From: Girardia tigrina
Taxonomy: Eukaryota
Direction of reading: 5' to 3'
Assembly: GCA_001938485.1 (NCBI GenBank)
Contig: MQRK01198580.1
Span: forward strand, 4,025-61,979
Length of the DNA: 57,955 nucleotides
Numbering within the stretch: position 1 is the first letter of the stretch; each line of letters starts with the position of its first letter. The notes under the pieces were generated by a model. The model saw only the letters and a program-made list of their open reading frames with translations, was not told the DNA's origin and did not search any database. Positions 1 to 53,308 of this stretch are shown here, piece after piece. A program made the position numbers and the translations under genes.

Positions 1-162
1 TATTAAATTCAAATTTATTTTTATAAACTAATCGATTTTATATTTGCAATATTTTTTCTAAATAAATTTATCAATAAATTATTATTTCGTTTAAAATCAC
101 CCCCGCTTATAGTCACATAAAAATGCCAGTCCCTTCAATGTGACTATATGTGGGGTTTACTG
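1..162. mobile_element. End of a pogo/Tigger-type DNA transposon
   Basis: Terminus ...GTGGGGTTTACTG followed by TA, a CAGTA-type TIR. It interrupts the RTE element. Confidence 0.55.
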
Positions 163-164
163 TA

Positions 165-1226
165 CTTCCCCAATGGTTTGATGAAGCTTTGACGACAAAT
201 TTTCGGGGTCACGAGTTACAAGATCTCTCTGAATGCTTTTCGACAATTCTTTTTTCGGCTTCCATTTCGTACTAGCTGTCTTATATCTTTTTGCTTTTAG
301 ATATAAGACTAAGCAATAGTGATCGGATCAACAGTGATAAAGATGCTTAGATTGTACATCTTTGATCTTGTTCACATTTTTTGAACGCACAAAAAAGTAA
401 TCAAGTAGCTCCCTCCTCTTCGTCTCCAGGTGGGTCCAGCTGGTGCTTTTCCACTCATTTTAGCAAAAAAAGGAGTTTACTACCTTTATACCATTCTCTT
501 CAGTTAGTAATACTAACCTTTCCCCATTATCCGACATGTGTGCACTGTGTTCATACTTTCTGATGCTGTGTACTTTGTTTTTTCCATCAAAGTGTATGCG
601 GCAATAGAAGTCTCCTCCCACCACCAACATGCACCCGGACTGCCTAGCTTCTGCTTCTGCTTTTCCAACCACAGTGTTTAAAGAGTCATGGGGTTTTTTA
701 AAGAGAATGGGGTTTTCTCGTTGTCACTGAATCCCCAGTTAGTAGGAGAGTAAACTCCTACGACCATTATTCTGAAGGAAATGATATTCGCTCTGAAAAT
801 TCGATCCGAGAATGCCTCAAACTCGATATCACCTTTAGGTAGTCTGGTTAAAAAAACAAATCCTCTTTCCCTAATTTGTCCGATTCGTGGTTAACTGTTG
901 TAAAGGGTGTACTTTTCATAATTCTCAGTCACGACGTCCAATAGGAGCGTTTCCGTCAGGATGGCTATACATACATTTAGCTTTCCTAGAGTGTCAGTAA
1001 CACTCAAGATTTTCTGATCACCAAACACTCGAAAATTCCATTAATAAACCTTCTTCAAACGAAATTGCGAGTCCCGCCTAGGGGACACCAGTCTGGTCCC
1101 CACTTAGCCTGCTAGACCTAGCTGAGAGAATCCCCTCTCGAATTTAGTTTTGGGTCCAGGATCACAACAAGGACGCATCGAGATGACGAAGATATATATC
1201 CATACGGATGTCATATCTCCGATCCC
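165..1226 (-). mobile_element. 5' part of an RTE-clade non-LTR retrotransposon (APE endonuclease domain, degenerate)
   Basis: Minus-strand translation gives APE motifs ILTET, VGVYSPT, LVVGGDF, DNGERL...VVNSFF, WTH...LLDYFL and SDHY, with stops and frameshifts. GC-richer 5' UTR. Confidence 0.85.
1136..1226 (-). ncRNA. HDV-like self-cleaving ribozyme at the 5' end of the RTE element
   Basis: P1 GGGAUC/GAUCCU (G1.U), J1/2 hairpin, P2 UCUCGA/UCGAGA, P3 GCG/UGU, L3 UCCUUGU, P1.1 CC/GG, J4/2 CUAAA; no P4 stem. Confidence 0.78.
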
Positions 1227-1563
1227 AATTAAAAATAATAATCCTAACCATTTCTTTGTAAAAACTCAAAATAATAAAAATGTTATCAAATTGTTAAATT
1301 AAATTTTATTTAAATTTTATTAGTTTTATTTATATCAAATGAAATGCTTTCTTTTTAAAAAAATATTTAACATGATTTTAATTGTTAATTTTAAAAATAT
1401 AAATTTATCAAATTATTATTTTAATTATGTTCGAATAGTCAATCACTTTAAATTTAAAAAAATATCAATTTCCATCTGGGTGTGAGAATCACCATTCTAA
1501 GTTCAACATACTCAAATCAACATACAACATCAATACATGTACACATTCAAACAATTTAAACTA

Positions 1564-2860
1564 CAGTCTCATGCAGTTAACAATCGTTAACTAGACATTT
1601 ACAGTAGCATGACTGTATTTTGTACTTATAACTTTACCTGTATTTTAATGAAAATATGAAAAGAATTAAAAAGTAAGATTTATCTGTATTTATTTACAAA
1701 AAATAATCACATCAATGATCATGTATATCTATTTCTTTCGCATAGTCAAAAAAAACGTTTGACATGGCGATAATAATTCCTCACTTCTTTGTATTCTTCC
1801 TTTGCCGCTACAGCTCGAATTCTGTTTCTAAAACAAAATGCTGATGAGACAAAGGTAGTATATCAGGATAATTGGTGATCTCTGTTCTTAGATCCCACTT
1901 TAGCTTTGCAAAAAAGCCACAATCAGATTGAGGAATGGTGAATAGGGTGGCAATTGAATAATCTGATAATCAGATGTGATATTGAAGTGGAATTTGGTAT
2001 TATCATGGATTAGATAATGATGAGTTCTGGTTCAATGTGCTGTGTAGTTCGCTGATAAACGACTGATATTTTACGTGATCTACATTGCCACTGTATAATC
2101 TAAACAGCAGTGGGCTATGTTTTACTATCGCCATAATCAGTGACATATTTTTGCCCCTGTTTGTGTTACATTAACTGGTAATCCTTTCTGTGATCGTCCA
2201 TATTGCCTGCTTGTCCATAAATTGAAGTCGATTTCGTCAATGAAGATATACTGATTCATTCTCCAACTTTCATTGAGAAATCGGCCCACATAATCTTGAC
2301 TTACCTTTTTCACAGTGATAAATTTTCCAGTCAGAAATCTGGAAATTGTTGATTCAGATATATTCAATTATTTTGTTTCCTGACTATATCTCTTCATTTC
2401 TGTTAACGTGGATTGCGGCCATTCTTCCACGTATTGAATAATATGTTGGTCCAGATCTTCATCAATAATACGTATTTTGTGGCCTCCATGTTTTCCAATC
2501 GAAATGAGGCCACTTCTTTTATATTTGTACACAATATTTCTGGCCGCTGATTGAGAAATATCTAACTGTCTGAGAAAATATAACTGTCTTGAGAAATATC
2601 TACTCTTAAAAGCTAGAAAATCGAGTGTGTATAAGGCGTGTATTACCTTGTGTATGCATGCATTGCATGTGTGTATCGTGTATGTTAGGGGTAAGGACTT
2701 TTTTTATATTAAAACAACTCTTAAATGCTGTGAGCTATTTCTAAAATCTGTTTTTTTGATATTTTCTAAGTTTTAATTGGTTGTTATTTTTTAGATTGGA
2801 ATTTACAATATAAAATTTGCTATCGAAAGCTGAAATTTCAATCTTAATTGCAAGCGACTG
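1564..2860 (-). mobile_element. Tc1/IS630-like DNA transposon, decayed
   Basis: Imperfect TIRs CAGTCTCATGCAGTTAA and TTAATTGCAAGCGACTG flanked by TA. Transposase remnants: HTH (ISESTISRFL), IFIDE and PYSPFLN. Confidence 0.8.
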
Positions 2861-3923
2861 TATTCCTTGCAATTGTTAAGTTTAAAAATAAAAAACTTTA
2901 GTTTATTTTTTTATGTTTACATAAAAAAAATCGTGGTTTATTTATCAAATAATAAAAATCATTTAATAAAAATTCGAAAATTGGGAATAGTTTTGGATTT
3001 GAATTTGACTTGATATATAGCATCGAAGTTTATGATTTTTTTGGGATCGATTTACAATTGCAATTAAAAAAATTATTAAAAAATGGCGTTTGAATTGTTA
3101 AGTTTTTGTTTGTTAATTGTTATTGATTTTTTATGGAATCTGTTCTAATCTCTAGCTGAAGCTGAGAGCAACCACAGCCATAAAGAGATCCGAGCATGGG
3201 CCCTGGCAGTGATATCGCTGGCAACCTTGTGTAAAGTGGCCCGGTTGATGGAGTTACGGAATTAGGATTTGCTGAGAGATGCAACCAGGCTGGTAGTTTG
3301 TGCCGTAGCGATTTGTTCCATTAGACGGTTTGATTGATTGAAATTTGAAGAAGAGATCGAATCCTTAAAACATCGTAAACTCAGTCTCAATGATCAGATG
3401 TCTTCATTGATCAATATGATTTCTTGTTCTGATAGCGATAAATGTAATAGACAAATCAAAAGATTTTATTATTTAAGTAAAAGTAACAAAGAAACATGCC
3501 GCGGGAGAAGAGGCCGACGCTATTTTTAAATGATAGAGATTTAAATAGTGTTTTTTTCTGATATGACTTTTCATGATGTCCTAGTACACTCAAGTTTATC
3601 ATTAAATTACCAAAATAAAACGAGCCAGAACCCGGTGCCAGCGTCGATTCAATTCACAAGATAACGACTCAATTCGAATTAAAAAAGACCAGGATAGTTG
3701 AGTTTTTTGAGTGGAAAATACCAGAGATTTATGAAAACAGTTAAATGATGAGATATTTCCAAATGTTTTGAACCCGGGACTCACAGCATGTAAGTCACAG
3801 GCTCCTTGCCGGGTTCGCAACTGCACCGACTGTGTTATTACTGGTATTGAAATTTCAAATTAATAAAATGATAAATATCATAACAGTTTACTTTTATCAA
3901 AGAATTTCTTTTTCATGAAAAAA

Positions 3924-3996: not shown

Positions 3997-4221
3997 TTAT
4001 TTTTCAACAATGTTTTTATTAAAAATATTTTTCTTCTTCATATACGAATGAAATGTGAGAATAGCATCATAAGCAAGAACAAATAATTCACAAACAGTTA
4101 AAAGACTTGAACCCAAATAAAAACCCAAAATACCTCCGATGTCAGAGAATAGACCCACAGAATTGTAAATGAATGATTCTACCATTTCAGAACTGTTAAA
4201 TTCTCCAGGGTTGAAATTTAC
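3997..4221 (-). CDS. DEG/ENaC subunit, exon 2 (TM2 and C-terminus)
   Basis: Acceptor TTACAG|GTA joins in frame as ...NTLK|VNFNPGEF. TM2 LFSDIGGILGFYLGSSLLTVCE has the GxS selectivity filter. Stop at 3997. The spliced product is 525 aa. Confidence 0.93.
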   Translation of the reverse strand, partial: VNFNPGEFNSSEMVESFIYNSVGLFSDIGGILGFYLGSSLLTVCELFVLAYDAILTFHSYMKKKNIFNKNIVEK

Positions 4222-6501: not shown

Positions 6502-7442
6502 TATGTATTCCAATAGTAAAATATTTGACAATATAATATTAACTTTTAATAGAATACAAACTCGAAAAATCAGGAATGAGGACGAGTGGAGCTTTGTAAA
6601 ATCATGTTACTACAATTTTCTGAACAATTTAGAAATTTAAGAAACAATATTTATAAAAATTGTTAAAACATCCAAAATGAGACACTTATTTATAGTAAAA
6701 TCGAAAACTGAATGTACATTAAAAGCTAATCTTATATTTAAATTTGAATTTTATAGATGTCATAACGCATACATAGGAAAAGCATACTTTGAAAAACTAA
6801 GCAAAGCTCAGGTTTTCAATTCCACCTTTGTTCAAAGCCATCATGCCACCTAGATAATGACCGCGAGCTAGGCAAAAATGATATCCCAACAGAAACTCAA
6901 TTTGTCATTCGTTTGATGTAATTTTAAGGAAGTTTTTGAATAAAATCAAGAAATGAAGAGTATATGGGTTAATAATTACATTTAAAAATTGCGTTAAAAT
7001 TTTTATTAATTTGATTAAATTTTTGAAAGATCTAAAGCTTAATCGTTCATAAATTAATAACTGGTAGGGTCGTTTTTGATGTCTTTGTTTATGGGACAGA
7101 CCTCTCAGCAGTGTTGGTCGATGAGCCAGGAACCAAGTCATAATTATGTTGGCGAATTAATGGGAAGAAATGATTTGTAAAAGGTTATGTAAAATATCTT
7201 TGGATTCTTAAACTAACGTTCAAACTAAACTTTCTTTAACCAATAATTGGACGTATTTCCTTTCTATTTGATATAATATCGATCAAATGATCAGGCTTAA
7301 ATCTTTGAAAGTAATCACAAGTTTCAAAAATTTTAATTTGATTTTTGAATTTTAATTTAATAATTTTTGTTTTTTTTATCATACTAATAAAAATATGTGA
7401 AAAATAACTTTTTAAAATAAGGTCATCAAACTGAACAAATAC

Positions 7443-8795
7443 CTTCAAAGTATTTCCAGTCCAAAGATGAAGCTTATAATCTTCTTCCTGTACTACGGCA
7501 TCAATCATTTCCTTCATACCTGGTCGTGCCGATGAATTCTCAGATAAAATGTTATTAGCCTTCAGAAAATACACTAAATTCTTAAAACTTGGTAGATGGG
7601 GCCAGGCACTTGTACTGGACCCACCTTGGTATTGAAAATATGTACAAGAATAACGATTAACACACAGTTCATTTGCTTGTTGCAAGTACTTGGTCATAAT
7701 ATTAAAGATCAGACGAGTTTTGCTGAGATTAAATCCAGGATCGGTAATATTGAAGCAGTATTTAATATTCGCCAAATTTACATGATATAAAATTGGTAAT
7801 ATGTGTACGTAACAGTCAAATTGTTTTACAATTCTTCTTTGAGTTTCGTCCCAAATGCACATGGAAACTATAGAATAATTTACCATTGTCGAAGGTTCGT
7901 AAATTAAGTTATGATAACCTCGGGAAATACTTTCATCAGTGTCTAAACATTCGTACTCGTTTTGCGAGATCCTTTGATTGAGAAAAGATCTAATAGTATA
8001 CGTAGTTTCCTCTCCTCCTTTCGCTCGAAATTTTGTCGAATCGATTCCCGGAACGCCATTAGGTGCTGTTAAATATATCGTAAAATCATTCGTATAATCT
8101 TTAGATGGAGGATGTTTAAAATTGAAATCAAGAAGGTTGTATTCCCCAAGAGTAATATTGAACTGATCGGGATTATTTGGATCGTGATAATTATCTGAAT
8201 ACAAAATCAAAGTTAGCTTATCATAAGGATTAGTAATTTGACATATTGATGATTGGATTCGTATACAAACTAAATGATCCCAATTCATAATTAAATTAAG
8301 ATCTTGAGGTAATAAATAATGGGACTTATCATTACATATATACTGGATTAAAATAGTGGGAGAATGACGATGGGAAAAGGTTTTAAAAAGTTTCGCTACT
8401 CCAATTGAACCCCATAAAAGGTACGTTCTTAAGAAAGATTCAGTTTTCGTTATATTGCTATTTAACATCATGATTTCTAGTGTAATATTTTTCATATATT
8501 CATATTCATTTTTTGGAGGATATCGAAAAAAAGATTCCGCAAATACTCTGTTTGGACAAACATGAATATCCGGTTGAGAAAATCTTATTGAATCCTTTCT
8601 TGTATTCATTATAGTTTTGTGCATTTTATATTGTTTGAATAATTGAAAACTTTGAACACAGAACCCAGTGGCACAGGTCATTGTAAATAAGATCCATATA
8701 ATCCTTTTAAACGGGTTATGTTCATGTTCGTAAATCTGTGGTACCCCATGAGCCGATGTCGTTTTCAAGCAATTATCAACAAATTCTATTACCAT
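7443..8795 (-). CDS. DEG/ENaC (amiloride-sensitive sodium channel family) subunit, exon 1
   Basis: Contains the pre-TM1 TSAHG gating motif, TM1 (RIIWILFTMTCATGFCVQ), the PDIHVCPN motif, a Cys-rich thumb and STSAWP. The phase-0 donor AAG|GTATTT at 7443/7442 explains the AT-rich run-on tail of ORF 7236..8891. ATG assumed at 8795. Confidence 0.93.
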
Positions 8796-9920
8796 TTTAA
8801 CATACAAAAAGCCTTTTTTACAAAATTCTGAATTTTTAGTAAATAATTCACAATAAATATGACAAAATTGATATTTTGAGAGAGTAAACAAGAGCTGAAT
8901 CCTTTCGGAAACGCATAATTAAATGATTGATGGAAAAACACATTAAATAAAAAAAGAGAATAAATAACGCAAAAATTCATTGGCTTTATCACTTAAATTA
9001 TTTTGCACTTCATAATAGAAATAAATTCCATCCATATAATATTTATTACATTTATTTCAATTTAAGTTCATTTTGATTTGAGTTTCTATTCTATCGAATT
9101 AAAAAATTGTCTTAAGTATTCAAATAAATAAATAAAATCTTTAATTTTAATTACGAGATAAATTTATAATTATCAATCCACACGTTTAATTTTCCATGTT
9201 TTTTATTAGCTTGCTTTCTATATACATAAATATGTTTGTACATATATGTATCCATGGTATTTGGAAACCTACCTTTGAAGGCTTTTTACTCAATAAATTT
9301 TCTCCAAACTTTGCAAACTTACTCATTTTTGATGACAATAAATGATAAAGTGAAAATTTGATCAAAAAAATTTTTTTAAGGTCTTAAAATTGGAACAAAA
9401 CGGTCCCATCGGAGTTCCTGAATAATAATAGCGTAAAAAGATCTACTTATAACTTCTAAGTAGTTTATATTACGAAAAAATAAAAATTGAAAAATAAATA
9501 AAGTCCAGTAAACCGATATCAAGTCTAACTAGTAAATCGCCTTGTACACTTACTCATTTTCGATGACAATAAATGATTATGTGAAAATTTAATTACAAAA
9601 GTTTTTTATATCCATTCTTTATGCGGGAAGAACTCTACTTGGTTAACAGAATTTTTTCGTTACCTTTTGTAGAAGGAAAAATTACTATTATATTTTTTTA
9701 ATAATTTTTTTGTTATTAGTAAATATTTAATTGCAAAAGTGAATTGTAAAAATTTTTCGTTTGATATCTTTATAAATGTATGAAAACTGTTCTAATAATT
9801 CATTACAAAATAATCTATAAAATATACAAATGTTTTCGTTTTCATTTATAATCTTGAAAGTTATTCAATAATAAATTATATTTAAATTAAAATATGTACT
9901 TTAATTTTTCTTAACATTGT

Positions 9921-10421
9921 TGTGAGGAATATTTTAAATTGTTTGAATGTGTAAATGTATGGATGCTGTATGTTGATTTAAATATGTTGAATTTAGAATG
10001 GTGATTCTCCCACCCAGATGGAAATTGGTATTTTTTATTAAATTTAAAGTGATTGACTATTCGAACATAATTAAAATAACCATTTTATAAGTTCATATCT
10101 TTAATTTCAGAATTAAAATTAAGTTTAATAATTTTTAGTAAAATTTAAATTAAATGCATTTTTAATAATTTGATGTCATTTTTATTATTTTGGGATTTAT
10201 TGAAAAATGGTAAAAAATAATATTTTTAATTAATATTTTTAAGAGGTTAAATATTTTAAAAAATAATTTAGAAAAATTGTTCGAATAATCATGATTAAAA
10301 ATAGAAATAAGAAAACCAATTAGAACGATGGCAAACGATGAAAGACTTTCTGAGAGTTTTAATGACTCTAAATGTAATTGCAATAAAGATTTAAACGAGA
10401 CTTGTTTAAATGTTCTTAATA
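9921..10421. mobile_element. Solo LTR
   Basis: TGTGAGGAAT...TGTTCTTAATA termini with exact 5-bp TSD ATTGT. Confidence 0.75.
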
Positions 10422-23801: not shown

Positions 23802-23847
<46 letters not shown>

Positions 23848-25111
23848 CTAGAACTGATAATGGCATTTTTAATAATAATGAAAAGAAAGGCCATTTTTTA
23901 ATATTAAATTTATTCACAATGCATACGCGTTTCACCATTTTGGCATCTTCAGTGCAATGAAATAAAGTGATTAATTGATATTTATATAGTTGAAAAACTA
24001 TTACATCATACGTCTCAAAAACATGCTTTTTTTTCCTTTTTTTATTTTTTTAACAAAAAAAGTATTTTATTGATATTTAAAAAAACTTTAATATGATTAG
24101 ATGAATCACCTTGCACGTTTAAGCATGGTTTATGATGCTTTATTAACAATGCTTCGGCAATAATCCTTTCATAATTTGTGTCAAAATTATTTAAAATCAC
24201 TTTAAAAATAAAAAAAATAATTTTCTGACCCAAAATACAATAGGAACATGATTAAAGGTTTGGTACATAGAGTCTGGGGTTTAACATCAACCTTTGAGAT
24301 ATTTGATAATGAAGTTGATGAACTTCATAATAGGCTTTCTAAAAAAGGATTTAATAAAAAGTATTTAAATAAAATCATAAAAGACACTGTTGAATCCATT
24401 AATTTCAAATCAAATAATGCATCAAATATAACTTCGGGAAATGACATTGATAATCAAATGACTATCAATCTAAAATTACCGTACTCAGAGAGAGCAAAAG
24501 AGTTCAAACGATTTTTAGAACATCGNNNNNNNNNNNNNNNNNNNNNNNNNNNNNNNNNNNNNNNNNNNNNNNNNNNNNNNNNNNNNNNNNNNNNNNNNNN
24601 NNNNNNNNNNNNNNNNNNNNNNNNNNNNNNNNNNNNNNNNNNNNNNNNNNNNNNNNNNNNNNNNNNNNNNNNNNNNNNNNNNNNNNNNNNNNNNNNNNNN
24701 NNNNNNNNNNNNNNNNNNNNNNNNNNNNNNNNNNNNNNNNNNNNNNNNNNNNNNNNNNNAATCTTATGGATTACAATAAAGATTTTAAAGTGATTTTAAA
24801 TAATTTCGACACAAATTATGAAAGGATTATTGCCGAAGCATTGTTAATAAAGCATCATAAACCATGCTTAAACGTGCAAGGTGATTCATCTAATCATATT
24901 ACAGTTTTTTTTAAATATCAATAAAATACTTTTTTTGTTAAAAAAATAAAAAAAAGGAAAAAAAGCATGTTTTTGAGACGTATGATGTAATAGTTTTTCA
25001 ACTATATAAATAGCAATTAATCACTTTATTTCATTGCACTGAAGATGCCGAAATGGTGAAACGCGTATGTATTGTGAATAAATTTAATATTAAAAAATGG
25101 CCTTTCATTTC

Positions 25112-25163
<52 letters not shown>

Positions 25164-28100
25164 GTGCTTTTATTGTTAATAATGTAAACTTAAACAATAA
25201 TAAAATAAGAATTTTGAAATCGGATTCATTTTAAAAGTAATAATTCATACTTATACTTCAGAACTAATACAAACTGTTTCTGGTCTAAGTTTTGAGTTCC
25301 TTTTTATTCGAGTAGTTGATAGTTTCGTATCGAAACTTAAACACTGTCTTCTTTCATATATTGAATTATGTTCATAATACGTATGATTCTTGAAAACTAC
25401 TTTTAAGATGAATAAAATTTTTTATCAATTCTTCTTAATAATTTAAAATTTCATCTTTATAATCAGAATTTAGATATTTAACACTTTTATAATAGAAGAA
25501 TACGGCATTACTTATTCTCTAAATCAAACACTGCGGATCCTCGAGAGAAAAATTTGTAGAACATTCATTCTTCTGTTTCTCGATTTCCATATACTCAATC
25601 CTACTTATCTATGTTCTTTCTTATTAAAACATATTATTAACAACATCAATATGAGTTTTACAACATTTATTAATATCATAAACGCATTCACTATTTGATA
25701 TTTTTCTTGATCAATATATTTCTGAATTCATACTAATTATTTTCAATAAATGAAAATCTTTTAATAAAAATTAATAATTATAAAGAATCTAATTTGTTAA
25801 AATTAAATCTAAACACTTTTTTTAAAAAGTACATATTAATTTAATATATTAAAATTTTAAATTACATTAAAAATTAAATAATACATTCAAAATTTATTTT
25901 AAATGTGTTTACTTTAAAATTAAATTAAACTATTTGTAATTAGTAAGAATCAAAGAAAATACCGATCATCCATCTGTGTAGGAGAGGCACAATCCGAATA
26001 AACACACAACATGCACAATATCAACACACAATTCAAAATATTCCTCACACATATATCAAGATTCTTCGATGCAAGTTATACAGGGTTTTCCACCTAATTT
26101 AATCTCTTTAGAAAATGGAAGAACAAGAATTTACAAAAATAAGAGTTAGATTACATACAATATATTACATATAAATTAAACAAAAAATTAAAAATAAAAT
26201 TTATTAACAATCCAGACCAAAATTAATAGTTTGGCCCATTGGGAACAGCTCATAGCGGAAAGTTTCCTGCCAATCCAACCAAATAGTTGGGACAGCCTTT
26301 CTATCAATTATACTTTAACTAATGTTTAGGCCGACTGATCATATTTCGATCACAACCATTATTGCTTGATGTTGGCGTTCGTGACCCATATATATCGAAA
26401 GTTTACATTTTAAAAATGGTGACTTTTGATCACAAGTCACCATCCGCCACAGAAATGGGTCGATTATTTTTGCAATTAAGTAGCGATTTGCAGATAAAAT
26501 TCGGTCCATAAGAATTCTTTACTCTAATTTGTGTGTTCTTCATAACTAAAGCTGCTTTATTTGCATTATTCTAAGGGTTTTTAATATTTTTTTGTTAAAT
26601 CTATAACTTTTGGTCAATTGAAAAAATGCCTAAAATAGTGCTTCGAGAATTTTCATTATTGTATACAGATTTTCATCAGTAGATCTTTCAGAGCATAGTG
26701 CATCTTTGATATTAGAATTAGCGGAACAGAATCGGAAAAATCAAAATTGCAAGTGAATGACTGTTACAGAATTAGGACCATAAATATTATTGACATTTTC
26801 AGCTTCTTTGTTATTGTTTTCACCTTAATCGAAAATATCTTTAAAAGATCGCATATTTTCTCTTTGCTAGTTACCATCTGTGAGTGTGAGTGTGAGAATT
26901 ATATGATAGTGTGAATGCATGACTGCAGTAGATTGATTTGAGTATGTTGAACTTAGAATGGTGATTCTTCTTCCCAGATGGAAATCGGTATTTTATTTTG
27001 TGTTTACAGTAATTGACTATTTGAACATAATTAAAATAATAATAACGAAATGATAATAACTTGTTAAGTTTGAATTTTTAAATTAGTAATGAAAATCAAA
27101 TTTGATATTTTTAAAAATAAAATAGAAAAGTATTTAAAGGGATATAAAAAAAACTAATGAAATTTAAATATTTTAATTAAAAGATATTTCTATAATTTAA
27201 GCACATTTTCAAGTATATTCTTTTATAATATATTTGTGTCTGGGAAGTTTAATATAATGAAATTTAAAATGAAATTCATTTTTTACAATTTTATAAAATA
27301 TTTTTATTATTTCGAGTTCTTATAAAGAAATGGGTAACATTATTAATTTTACAATAAATATTTTAAGTAATAAAATATTTTTGGAAATTAAATATTATCG
27401 AAAAATTTATAAAATTTGTTCGAATAATCATGATTGTTAAGAACATTGAGACAATTTCATCTGAATTTTTATTAATATCCCATTTAGAGTCATTACAACT
27501 CTTGAAAGATCTTTCATCGTTTGACTTCGTTCTAATTGGTTGTTTTTATAATGATTATTTGAACAATTCTTCTAAATCTTTTTAAAATATTTTTCAAATT
27601 TCTAAAAATAATAATTAAAAATAATAATTTTAACCATTTAATAAAAACTCAAAAAGATAAAAATGTTATCAAATGGTTAAAAATGAATTTAATTTAAATT
27701 TTATTAATTTTATTTATATCTAATTAAATGCTTTTCTTTTCTTAAAAATTGTAAACAATCTTCCGAGAGATGCAAGGACTCTAAATGTGATAATAATAAA
27801 TGCTCAAATAAAAATTGTCTTAATGCTCTTAACAGCGAGAAAATAGAGACAAAAAGCATAAACCTGTTTCAGTTTTAGTCTTAAAATTTTTTAAGGCTTT
27901 TAAAGTTATTTTAAAGGAAAAAAACTTTCTAAAGTCATCTAGATTAAAACCAATAACACTCCTACAATGCGAAATACATATTACAAAAGTCACTTGTTGG
28001 AAAAGTAATGAATTACTTTTAACTACACCAAATATTTAGTAAGATATAAGACACCTTATCTTATTGTTAAACGTTATTCGTCATCTAAATCTAATTGCAA

Positions 28101-34100: not shown

Positions 34101-37100
34101 CATACTACTTTTGACAAACTTCACGTAATTAAGATGTCATTGATAGTATAAAAGTAAGCTGACCGATGAACAGGAATTTAGTGATCGGTGAGTTTAATTT
34201 TAAAAATAGAATAAAATTAATAAATTAAAATAATATAATAAAATTATATTAATTTTAACAAACTACGAACGGAAAAGATCCGTAGTACAGATAGCCCTTT
34301 TGATTTATAAAATATCCACTTATAAAATATTCCTCACTTCACGATGTGATTCAACAAATTTTTGATACCTCTACTTCAAATTTATATAAATAATAAATAA
34401 AAATAAATAAATAATAAAAATGTATAGATAAAAACTACTTTATTGTCTTCATACACCGAAACCATGAAAAATGAAGACAAGGTTTATAAAATTATTTATA
34501 TGAAAATACTTGTTATTTATTGTTTAAAAATTTAAATTATTAAAGGGTTATGGTATTTAATCAATAATGACTCGCAATATTTTTGTTCTGAGTGCATATC
34601 AACATTCGAATCAAGAACTTGTCTTTTAATTTGACTGACAAGAGTTAAAAAAAGTAAAAGTAACTTCCCTGGAGCCAAAAGGTCTACATTGATAGGAAAT
34701 TTAAAACATTTAAACTTTTTGTTCTAACCACCTCAAATAATCGAGCTTTTCTTTATTCGCACTCGGTAAGTCATTTAACATCCTTAATTACCTGATCTTT
34801 ATTTATTTACTCAATTGAATTCAGAATATTTAACAAAATCATATCTGTAATCAAGCATTTTTATTCAATCAAATGGAAATCAATCAAAAATTGAATATTA
34901 AATTGTCAAGTGCGACATTTGTAGGTATGATTACTGTAAATTCAAATATTTATAATTTGACAATGACTTAACATTTTGTTGCTCAGGTTTTGTTGTTTGT
35001 TACAATCCTGGCTTTGATGAATCACTAATGAATCACTAGCAGCCCCCGATAGGCCTCCTACGGGGTCGGATAGTTTCGCTCTCCGAGATCTTTTCGGCTT
35101 CCCTGTGAGAAACGACCACCCATGGGTTGTATAGCCATGGTTCTGCATACCTTTGACTGTATTCGTGGACTTTGTACAGCCGCGAAAGGGACATCTGAAC
35201 TCACCCCTTGCAGTTAGATCTGCAATCCTAAAAGTCAGATGTGTTTCTTCAGTACCTATCGCTTCTTCCACCGCCATCGAGATAGTCGGGGGGTCCGTCA
35301 CGGATTAAATCTGGTTGCCCGAAATGTTGAGGTTTTCTACGACTCTTTCTTCTGTGGTTGTACTATCTCTCCAATGCGCACCTCATCTCCTTTCGAGTAT
35401 TAAGCCTGAGGCTTTTTAGGAGGCCTGGGACGCTGATGGTTCTCAACGGGCACTCCCACAATGTTGGGATCCATGCCTTTGTTCCGCCTGTCCGAAGATG
35501 CAACGACGTCATTACGACACCCTTCACCGGGATTGATTCATCCCAGATCATTAAGATGCAATCCAACCATCGACAGCGGGGTCACTACTCCCCACAGCCT
35601 TCACACCCAGATTGTAAAGCGTAGCCTAGTGAATGGATTGCTGGCCCATTCCTGAATACGATACATTGTCGGCTGTTCCGCAATGAAAGGCTAGCTTTCG
35701 GGCACTTTAGCCTAGAGACGGAATCGAACCCAATCTAGTTTCTCAGGGATACTACGTAGAAGTATGCCCACTGGCCGCACAGTTGATCCCTGATCTCTCC
35801 AATGTACGAGTTTTGACACCTGTTATAATCAAATTTGTAAACTAGATTAGCTTGCAATCCAAAATTCGTTCTTGTTTTCTTCATTTAATCCTTTCTTAAC
35901 CCGTGTTTGTGTACATAATTTGTCCAATGTAACCATAATGTTGTGATCTAAATGTTTGTTTATGTACATGTTGTCAATTTAAAGAACTAATAAATATTAA
36001 ATTATAATTATTGAAGTATGAAATTTGAAAACATGTACAATTATGAATTTCTTGAAAAAAATCTTTGACAAAACTTTTTTCAAAAAATATATTTTTTTTT
36101 GATTTTATCTTTGTGAGGAATATTTTTGAATGGTGTTTATTGTGTGTTGTTTGGTATGTTGTTTGGTATGTTGTTTTAGGATTGTGTTTCTCTCACCCAG
36201 ATGGAAGATTTATATTTTAAATATTTTAAAAGGTCGGGTTGTTTAATCAAGTATTAAAATTTAAATAATCTCTTTAAAATTAAACTAATATTTCATAAAT
36301 AATATTTTAATAATATTTTCTTAAAATAAATAAAAATTATTTCAAATTTAAAATATAAATTATTTTTGTAATAATTAAATTGTAATTTAAATTTGTTTAA
36401 ATAACAAGACGTTAAAGAATATTATTAAAGATTATCAATCAAGAAGGATAACGAGCTACGCAAGTTTTACGAAGAATTGTTCTAGTGGCAATTCAAATTG
36501 TGATATAAATAAATGTAAAGAAAACTCAATTAATGTTCTTAATAATCTTGAACCATTTTTAAACTCTTTTCATTCATCAAATCGGGGAGGATGTATTATT
36601 CATTAAAATCAAACACTGGACTGCCATGTCCTTTAATGTTTTTATACTTTGTAAAAGGAAGCATTTTGACTTTATGTTTATATTTTACTATGTACATGTT
36701 TTTATGTTAAATTCGCCCTTTAGTCCGTCTTTAATTTAAAAAAGCAAAGAAAAAATATTTTATAAATATAAATATATAATCAAAAATTATTTTCTACTGA
36801 TATTAATTTGAAAATATTGCTTAATACTTTTTAAATTGATAAAAAGATAAAATTCGTCAAACATCTTGTGACGCATTTTTAAAATCCGTATCAATTTAAA
36901 TGTATATTGTATCTTTGATGTCGACTAATTCTTCAGGAATCAAGAGTCTTTCGAATATATAATGAACGCCTTAATGATACCACAAGTTCGATTAAACGGT
37001 TCTCTTCTACTATCATCTCATTTTTTTGGAAGAAGTATGTTAATGGGGTTGATCTAAATGATTTACTTTCGAAAATGTGTTCTCAATGGACCATGACACT

Positions 37101-50835: not shown

Positions 50836-53308
50836 GTGTACAACTAATTAATTTCGTATTTTTTTGTTAAAAAAACCATTTATTTAAGTATAAAAGTGAA
50901 AAAATATTTTATTCAAAANNNNNNNNNNNNNNNNNNNNNNNNNNNNNNNNNNNNNNNNNNNNNNNNNNNNNNNNNNNNNNNNNNNNNNNNNNNNNNNNNN
51001 NNNNNNNNNNNNNNNNNNNNNNNNNNNNNNNNNNNNNNNNNNNNNNNNNNNNNNNNNNNNNNNNNNNNNNNNNNNNNNNNNNNNNNNNNNNNNNNNNNNN
51101 NNNNNNNNNNNNNNNNNNNNNNNNNNNNNNNNNNNNNNNNNNNNNNNNNNNNNNNNNNNNNNNNNNNNNNNNNNNNNNNNNNNNNNNNNNNNNNNNNNNN
51201 NNNNNNNNNNNNNNNNNNNNNNNNNNNNNNNNNNNNNNNNNNNNNNNNNNNNNNNNNNNNNNNNNNNNNNNNNNNNNNNNNNNNNNNNNNNNNNNNNNNN
51301 NNNNNNNNNNNNNNNNNNNNNNNNNNNNNNNNNNNNNNNNNNNNNNNNNNNNNNNNNNNNNNNNNNTACAGAGCATTACCTTCAAACCATGAATATTCGG
51401 CTTTGGTGTCGATTTGGCTGGTTGGCCTGGCTTCACATATGATCTTTTACGCTTTGGGTTGTCGTAATGAATCCACTTTTCATCATCAGTGGCAATACGA
51501 TGTAAAAACGGTTTCTTTTGTGGCGATTAAGCAGCAAATCGACTCTCAACGTCTCTCGGCTTCAATTCGTGTGGCACCCAATTTCCTTGTTTCTGAATGT
51601 ATCCGGCTGCTTTTAAACGTTTAGAAATGGCTTGTTGAGTGGCTTCGAATGTTTTTCCAAGTTCTTCTTGAGTTTGACATGGATCTTGATCGAGTAATGC
51701 CTCCAATTCTTTGTCTTCAAACTTTTTTGATGGACCTGATCGCTCTTTGTCTTCTGTGTCAAAATCNNNNNTTTTAAATCGTGCAAACCACTGCTGACAT
51801 ACTCTAACCTCTGGAGCATATTCAGGATAAGCTTCTGAGAGTAAACGATGTGTTTCTGTTGCACTTTTCCTTAAATTAAAGAACAAAAGCAAACCTCCCC
51901 GAAAATGTTATTTTGTTGGAACGTAATTTGACATTTTGACTGTAATAAAAAAAATTGTGTGTTTACTAAAATTCAATAAAATTGACTATTGACTACATAA
52001 ATAGATATGAGGTTAGTAACAAATTCGAAATGAGGTAACAAATATGAAATGAGGTAACAAATATGAAATGAGGTAACAAATACGAAATTAATTAGTTGTA
52101 CACCTAATATATATATATAGATATATAAATTCACAGAAATAAAAGTTTATTAATCAAAGTATGAACGGTTGGAATCAATACATTTTTGCCAACGAGAAAC
52201 AAGTTGTTTATTTCATCAGCATAAAATGTATCGGTTCTTGAAGCGACGAATTCTTGGAAGGCATTTTGAGCATCATTTTGGTTTTTGAAAATTTTTCACG
52301 TAGGAAGTTGTACAAATGCCTGAAAAAGTAGAAGTCCGTTGGCTAGAGGTCTGGTGAATATGGTGGATGAGGCAGAGTTTCATAGCCCAATTCATTGAGC
52401 TTTTGAAGAGTCACTTTTGAAATATGAGGTCTAGCGTTATCATGAAGAAGGATGGGACTTTTTCGATTGACCAATCCCGGACAAAGGATTTTCAATTTTT
52501 TATGCATTTCATCAATNNNNNNNNNNNNNNNNNNNNNNNNNNNNNNNNNNNNNNNNNNNNNNNNNNTCCAGCATCACACCACCAAACTGTCACCATAACC
52601 TTACGGGGTGTTAGTTTCGGTTTTGGAAAGTGTTTCGGTACTTCATCTTTGTCCAACCACTGTGCAGAACGACGTCGGTTATCATACAGGATCAATTTCT
52701 CATCACAGGTAACAATACGATGATGATTGGCAGAACAAATTTCATAGCGTCGGTTCTTTTGATTTTCATTCAAATCATCGGGATCCCATTTATCATGTTT
52801 CTTGATTTTTCCAAGTTGTTTTAAATGATCCAGGACTGTTGAATGACTTATTCCCAACCCATCTGCAAGTTCTCTGATTGTTGTACGGGGATCTGTTTCC
52901 ATCATTGTCCTCAAATTGTAGTTGTTCACAGCAACTGGACGACCACGACCTTCTTCATCTTCGAGGTTTTCATCTCCATCAGAAAATTTTCGGAACCATC
53001 GTTGCACTCTGCGCTAGAAGCTGTTTCCTTGCCAAACACTTTATTGATATTGCGAGCCGTTTCTGCTGCTTTACGACCCAGTTTAAATTCGTACAAAAAA
53101 ATTGCTCGAATTTTATTTTTTTCCATTATTAATTTAGCACAGTAAATATTCTAAAAAATAACAGGAATATGTTAATAATTGCTATAGGAATATACAGCTA
53201 GGCATAAGATTTCAAATAATATCTAACACTAATTCATTTAAACTTTTATACATATCAAAGTAGATAAACAAAGTATAAAGCTCAAANNNNNNNNNNNNNN
53301 NNNNNNAC

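Follow-up and report, generated by a model that had tools for sequence, protein, structure and literature searches.

The window analysed here is the whole 57,955-nt stretch of contig MQRK01198580.1 of Girardia tigrina (positions 4,025 to 61,979 of the forward strand), numbered from its first letter. Near its left end lies part of a decayed LINE on the minus strand, inserted into a dispersed repeat and starting with a predicted HDV-like ribozyme fold. The features that make up this locus, and a related fragment elsewhere in the window, are the following.

1..164: a different repeat, which cuts off the element at 165 (contig comparison)
280..1040, minus strand: AP-type endonuclease, decayed, split over two frames (shift near 717-654) and interrupted by several stops
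1041..1135, minus strand: short leader that shares the reading frame of the endonuclease
1136..1226, minus strand: HDV-like double-pseudoknot fold, with predicted cleavage between 1227 and 1226 (G1) (descriptor scans, shuffles and pair table)
1227..1563: AT-rich dispersed repeat, the 5' flank hosting the insertion (blastn)
35017..35238, minus strand: detached 3' fragment, from this lineage or a sister one, in a GC-rich stretch (35000-35800)

The LINE copy and its 5' boundary

The endonuclease region (280..1040) was matched by the protein P0152 in a tblastn search (E 6e-27), and a HMMER search recovered 202 relatives of the endonuclease at E<=0.001. In a domain scan, 12 of 13 relatives carried an exo/endo/phosphatase domain (PF14529/PF03372) and seven of them a reverse transcriptase (RT) domain (PF00078) as well. 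At full length, the relatives consist of a single ORF of about 850-1500 residues in which the AP endonuclease precedes the RT, and identity to the relatives is ~30-43% over the endonuclease. The window copy keeps the endonuclease only, with no RT and no 3' end within the window. The first endonuclease motif lies just 186 nt from G1, which leaves an ORF1 no room, provided that G1 is the true end. One among the six best matches is named craniofacial development protein 2-like, and a YGxExW motif follows the RT in 102 of 120 relatives; both the name and the motif, we assume, point to the RTE clade. Judging from these sequence comparisons, the element likely belongs to that clade, in a single-ORF lineage. 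The AP-endonuclease LINE of RTE type proposed in the preliminary description is supported, the clade being read from these relatives. Several other searches returned nothing: no Pfam match was obtained with the two endonuclease pieces, no match to the endonuclease among 395 candidates in a word-seeded search, no endonuclease match in PDB searches (a PDB search with P0152 gave L1, R2 and intron RTs only), and no loci in protein-guided scans of viral and prokaryotic genomes.

The separate 3' fragment at 35017..35238 contains a C2H2-like finger (35199-35074) corresponding to the zinc finger at the C terminus of proteins of the lineage; 8 of 12 query proteins matched it in tblastn, at E 1e-9 to 1e-3. 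After the finger comes an 11-nt repeat in two copies (35038-35017), which may be due to chance. Short 3' tandem repeats and target-site duplication are among the features given for the RTE clade (PMC6007223).

Upstream of G1, the DNA is AT-rich as had been described, and it can now be identified as a dispersed repeat, with blastn matches elsewhere in the window at 9930-10231, 27255-27351 and 27613-27757 and very high contig depth over 1255-1596. All 64 of the 64 flank bases up to 1227 align in two other copies of this repeat, and 61 of 64 in a third. Over the next 30 bases past the junction, the first two of these copies are identical to this locus at only 10 and 5 positions, and to each other at 18. 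The other repeat copies run on AT-rich past 1227, where this copy switches to G1. Because the match among the repeat copies extends to 1227 and ends there, the element boundary lies between 1227 and 1226, so that the claimed coincidence of an abrupt element start with the predicted cleavage site is borne out in this copy, at the one junction examined. A pile-up of ends was not seen in the family contigs, nor was any loose end at 1226-1230 among the 24 listed of 1568; contigs cannot reveal RNA ends. The window copy is cut at 165. There, 32 contigs of sequencing run X1 continue leftward with another sequence (agreement 0.84), and one contig end of run X5, which carries another organism label, is identical to 1-164. 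The repeat at 1-164 holds an imperfect palindrome at 101-155.

An HDV-like fold at 1226 to 1136

All helices named in the preliminary description can be drawn on the minus strand between 1226 and 1136, as set out in a pair table. The elements of the fold, all on the minus strand, are these.

P1, 1226-1221/1163-1158: six pairs, G•U at G1 and then five Watson-Crick pairs (pair table)
J1/2 hairpin (P1.2-like), 1188..1220: 9 bp + 4 bp
P2, 1183-1178/1141-1136: six Watson-Crick pairs
P3, 1176-1174/1166-1164: G•U, C-G, G•U
L3, 1173-1167: 7 nt
P1.1, 1172-1171/1157-1156: two pairs, with GG on the 3' side
Core (P3 5' strand, L3, P3 3' strand, P1 3' strand and P1.1 GG), 1156..1176
Unpaired segment at the P4 position, 1148..1155: 8 nt
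J4/2, 1142..1147: the C at the catalytic position is 1147

The helices follow one another in the order P1, P2, P3, P1.1, and P1 and P2 fall within the ranges given for HDV-like ribozymes, which are 6-7 bp for P1 and at least 5 bp for P2 (PMC3774820). C1147 is the first position of J4/2, the place of the catalytic C in HDV-like ribozymes (PMC10879173). HDV has a G•U wobble where it is cleaved, as well as a U20/G25 reverse wobble (PMC13635239); the former is present as G1226•U1158, and U1173 and G1168 of L3 would match the latter if our mapping of positions is correct. J1/2 has a total length of 37 nt in the window copy, and its hairpin taken alone folds with a z of -2.71, 2 of 200 shuffles being equally good. 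A single U at 1177 separates P2 from P3 and may extend P2 by pairing with A1143 across a bulged U1142.

A strict HDV-like descriptor had one match in the whole window, the site at 1226-1136, as compared to none in 60 shuffled windows, 1 in 5000 local shuffles of 300 nt and 0 in 5000 with G1 at the start. The only window match of a relaxed descriptor with C at the catalytic place was again this site, while shuffled controls gave seven cores in 40 windows and 2 matches in 5000 local shuffles, none of them with G1 at the start. Both descriptors were composed with the finding already in view, and the shuffle rates are therefore optimistic. When the whole 91 nt are folded with nested pairs only, the score is no better than for shuffles (z -1.40), which is unremarkable because a nested-only model cannot represent a pseudoknot. 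That model places P1 and P3 at probability 0, and the rival pairings that it allows are those of the P1 5' strand with 1184-1180 and of the flank (1249-1238) with the P1 3' strand. Rfam identified no ribozyme family on 1-3000, on 1120-1240 or on the whole window, a miss that reflects the coverage of the library and not a defining property of the fold. The locus holds a real, well-formed HDV-like fold, in which every structural feature that could be tested is present save for a library match. A scan of metagenome contigs with a DNA pattern of the core gave no matches. The same pattern matched two viral and eight prokaryotic sequences, which we ascribe to chance, as none of the ten completes the fold.

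Family copies and relatives

Contigs of runs X1 and X2 (organism A) and X5 (organism C), aligned at 80% likeness, revealed a multicopy family. Variant contigs number in the dozens over the endonuclease, where X1 reaches 73 at a single place, and 28-31 at the J1/2 hairpin. Of the small-share runs X5 alone was used, and run X21 contributed low-likeness AT-rich reads only. At 1196 the letter held by most of the depth (X1, 9333 of 10428; X2, 2439 of 3149; X5, 180 of 180) replaces a G•U pair of the hairpin by G-C, and the majority letter at 1187 abolishes a pair competing for C6, the last base of P1 (10991 of 11183, 2737 of 2876 and 160 of 166, respectively). The change at 1196, a one-sided one, is the one helix change among the contig differences listed (40 of 510). 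The positions of L3 and P3, for which the preliminary description had proposed C-to-T decay, do not appear among these 40. Decay by CpG methylation, considered as the cause of the letters in L3 and P3 (1169, 1166 and 1164), is without support: the window shows no CpG depletion (observed/expected 0.95) and six CpG are retained in the motif.

A protein-guided scan of metagenomes yielded 11 loci, two of which (L001 and L002) are near full length, and the upstream parts of seven of the 11 loci, and then of four, were scanned with the descriptors. Upstream of L008 there was one AT-rich descriptor match. L002 encodes an intact RTE-like ORF (P0163, 99%) and lies together with the window copy on the same side of a branch with a support of 96 in an endonuclease tree (20 of 92 rows), a quick version built on 124 columns with 91 of 101 candidate rows kept. 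On its plus strand, at 358-444 and ~470 nt before the ORF, L002 carries a predicted HDV-like fold in which all helices differ in sequence from those of the window fold and in which the P4 hairpin is intact. P1 has only five pairs there, and a hairpin of four pairs is inserted in L3. The top of P2 is alike in these two examples, with a pairable base just after CUAA over a one-base bulge, the extra pair being G-C in L002 and U-A in the window. The L002 descriptor, which was composed after the fold had been spotted by eye, gave any match in 5 of 300 shuffles and an all-Watson-Crick match in none of 300. The two folds share their topology and do not align in sequence, the alignment not being structure-faithful. 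On this comparison of sequences, the lineage uses predicted HDV-like folds at least twice, and given both folds the loss of P4 would therefore be specific to the window family.

No ribozyme family was found by Rfam in L001, L002 or L004, and L001 matched none of three descriptors in its 560-620 upstream bases. Upstream of its ORF, at about 370-450 on the plus strand, L001 has nested inverted repeats with a CUAAAA strand beside a helix of six pairs; this region offers no P1 or P3 that fits an HDV-like fold.

Proposed role, known systems and other features of the window

We consider it probable that positions 1226-1136 are a predicted ribozyme at the exact 5' boundary of a likely RTE LINE copy, which would free the RNA just before G1. 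The element would be transcribed inside a host read-through RNA, and this RNA would fold into the nested double pseudoknot. Cleavage 5' of G1 would be carried out by C1147 with a divalent ion, and reverse transcription would run to the freed RNA end, such that a full-length insertion would begin at G1. The hairpin in J1/2 would keep P1 and P2 in contact, an effect shown for the mosquito Agam-2-1 ribozyme, which we take to lie in RTE elements, and it may offset the missing P4. The window copy itself is probably slow or dead as a ribozyme, because P3 has wobbles at two of its three pairs and because pairing is possible between the flank and the P1 3' strand. Cleavage, its end-setting role and any role in translation are proposed by analogy with the systems described in PMC6765202, PMC4908430 and PMC13635239.

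It could be that the ribozyme is real and sets the 5' end, and that P4 is lacking only in this copy or in a minor subfamily, most copies having a longer segment or a P4. The preliminary description had stated that P4 is replaced by an unpaired stretch. This holds for the window copy and for the contigs spanning the P4 position (7-8 in X1, two in X2 and two in X5), all of which are gapless and in which three letters differ. Depth across 1151-1154 is 1243 as against 11183 at 1187 in X1, 213 as against 2876 in X2 and 88 as against 166 in X5, which makes the spanning share about 11%, 7% and 53%, respectively, of the depth 35 nt away, and most X1 and X2 depth fails to align across 1151-1154. The steep fall in X1 and X2 would be expected if copies with P4 prevailed, and the P4 hairpin of L002 fits as well. 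However, in X5 the depth of the two spanning contigs (87.7) is on a par with that of the adjoining downstream bin (81.5), no indel was present at 1140-1160 among 12 listed of 18 and no joint among 15 listed of 84, and a like dip in depth occurs at 1020-1043, where mismatches cluster. A confinement of P4 loss to this copy or to a small subfamily appears unlikely, and its extension beyond this copy is partly supported by the aligned contigs, those that span the site being a minority of the X1 and X2 depth.

The fold might also be a vestige, or a protein-binding or translation element, with the 5' end set by an internal promoter at G1 in the manner of Pr77 of L1Tc, whose 5' end combines promoter and ribozyme (PMC3383444). 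Such a reading would agree with the weak P3 of this copy and with the lack of a fold of this kind in L001, but it would leave the retention of the cleavage-site wobble, of the U and G of the reverse wobble in L3, of P1.1 and of the C at the catalytic position to be explained, and RTE elements are described as promoterless (PMC6765202); we hold it to be quite improbable. It is hardly credible that the fold arose by chance in the leader of a LINE copy whose 5' truncation fell at G1 by accident, given that none of the 5000 local shuffles matched at the start with either descriptor, that the majority letters of the family improve the pairing and that the relative L002 has the same topology, even if the relaxed descriptor yields seven cores in 40 shuffled windows, the descriptors are post hoc and an Rfam match is missing.

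A further idea is that in this family the ribozyme core is also protein-coding, with a start at the AUG of the P2/P3 junction (1178) and a frame that continues across L3, P1.1, the linker lacking P4 and the catalytic strand as far as the endonuclease, such that the fold would hide the start codon and P4 would have been lost under constraint on the frame. AUGs in the frame of the endonuclease are found at 1214 and 1178, inside the fold, and there is none between the fold and the endonuclease. A start at 1178 would place the first endonuclease motif at codon 47, as compared to codons 6-59 for 11 of the 16 relatives. Starting at G1, 40 codons are free of stops before the one at 1106-1104, and a second stop of the leader in this copy (1043-1041) is not the majority reading in the family contigs. 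The stop at 1106-1104, a run of open codons which is unremarkable at this length, and the position of the predicted L002 ribozyme well ahead of its ORF all speak against a coding role, which we regard as doubtful.

The primary source for ribozymes at the 5' ends of RTE and Baggins elements is reportedly a 2011 survey of retrotransposon ribozymes. The literature searched here, which lacked that survey, contained no P4-less RTE example and no description of an L3 hairpin. HDV-like ribozymes have been reported in RTE and Baggins elements, which have no promoter of their own (PMC6765202), and cleavage at the first nucleotide of P1 as well as activation by a J1/2 helix have been described (PMC4908430). 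A close likeness is to the mosquito drz-Agam-2-1, which sits at the 5' end of an AP-endonuclease LINE and has a P1 of 6 bp, a stable J1/2 hairpin and a cut at the first base of P1 (PMC4908430, PMC6765202); in the window P2 has 6-7 bp and is not extended to 12, P4 is missing, and the fold is a predicted one. The R2 ribozymes of five silkmoth species have no P4, the abalone HDV-like ribozyme has 5 nt in its place, and in R2 the P4 region can be of insufficient length for folding (PMC3774820). The silkmoth and abalone ribozymes resemble the window fold in that a non-LTR retrotransposon combines a missing P4 stem with an extended J1/2, and differ in that R2 is site-specific with a restriction-like endonuclease (PMC3774820). 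The silkmoth P1 moreover uses 28S sequence and is cut 28 nt upstream of the element, whereas the P1 of the window is wholly element-derived, with a J1/2 of 37 nt. Minimal drz and theta ribozymes also lack P4 and have the catalytic C as the first base of J4/2, but they are phage or metagenomic, compact, located beside tRNA genes and not associated with a LINE (PMC10879173). In L1Tc and NARTc, Pr77 is an HDV-like fold with which an AP-endonuclease LINE of one ORF begins (PMC6765202, PMC3185411, PMC3383444). These trypanosome elements differ in carrying an internal promoter within the same 77 nt. For Perere-3, the 5' junction of an RTE abuts the cleavage site of twister variants, a different class of ribozyme in which target-site sequence contributes to P1 (PMC8501958).

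The surprise implied in the preliminary description was overstated in that P4-less HDV-like ribozymes in retrotransposons have been published (PMC3774820). Earlier work has described both the P4-less form and LINEs without promoters whose 5' ends are defined by a ribozyme, and the present locus extends the list. It adds a compact natural HDV-like fold, having a J1/2 hairpin and no P4, to a divergent RTE-like lineage. Together with its P4-bearing relative L002, it would let one ask whether the J1/2 helix replaces P4.

Elsewhere in the window, motifs resembling a hammerhead core (CUGAAGA, a short stem II and GAAA) are found at 25039 and 57859 on the plus strand and at 23952 on the minus strand, where Rfam recorded no match at gathering score in its search of the whole window. 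They adjoin GIY-YIG-like fragments and an inverted pair of about 400 bp (23802-24207 / 24783-25162), a setting that to us looks like Penelope-like elements with minimal hammerheads. A decayed fragment of a DDE_3 (Tc1/IS630-type) transposase lies at 1730-2400 on the minus strand (E 7e-5, below the Pfam cut-off), and transposase fragments on the same strand at 50909-53013, which by motif we take to be Mariner-like, flank N-masked stretches. At 7236-8918, also on the minus strand, one long ORF encodes an ASC (ENaC/degenerin) domain (E 1.8e-21), and no homologue of it was scored among 1910 candidates. Finally, 17583-39981 on the plus strand gives the impression of several long, helical-looking exons that possibly belong to one spectrin-repeat gene.
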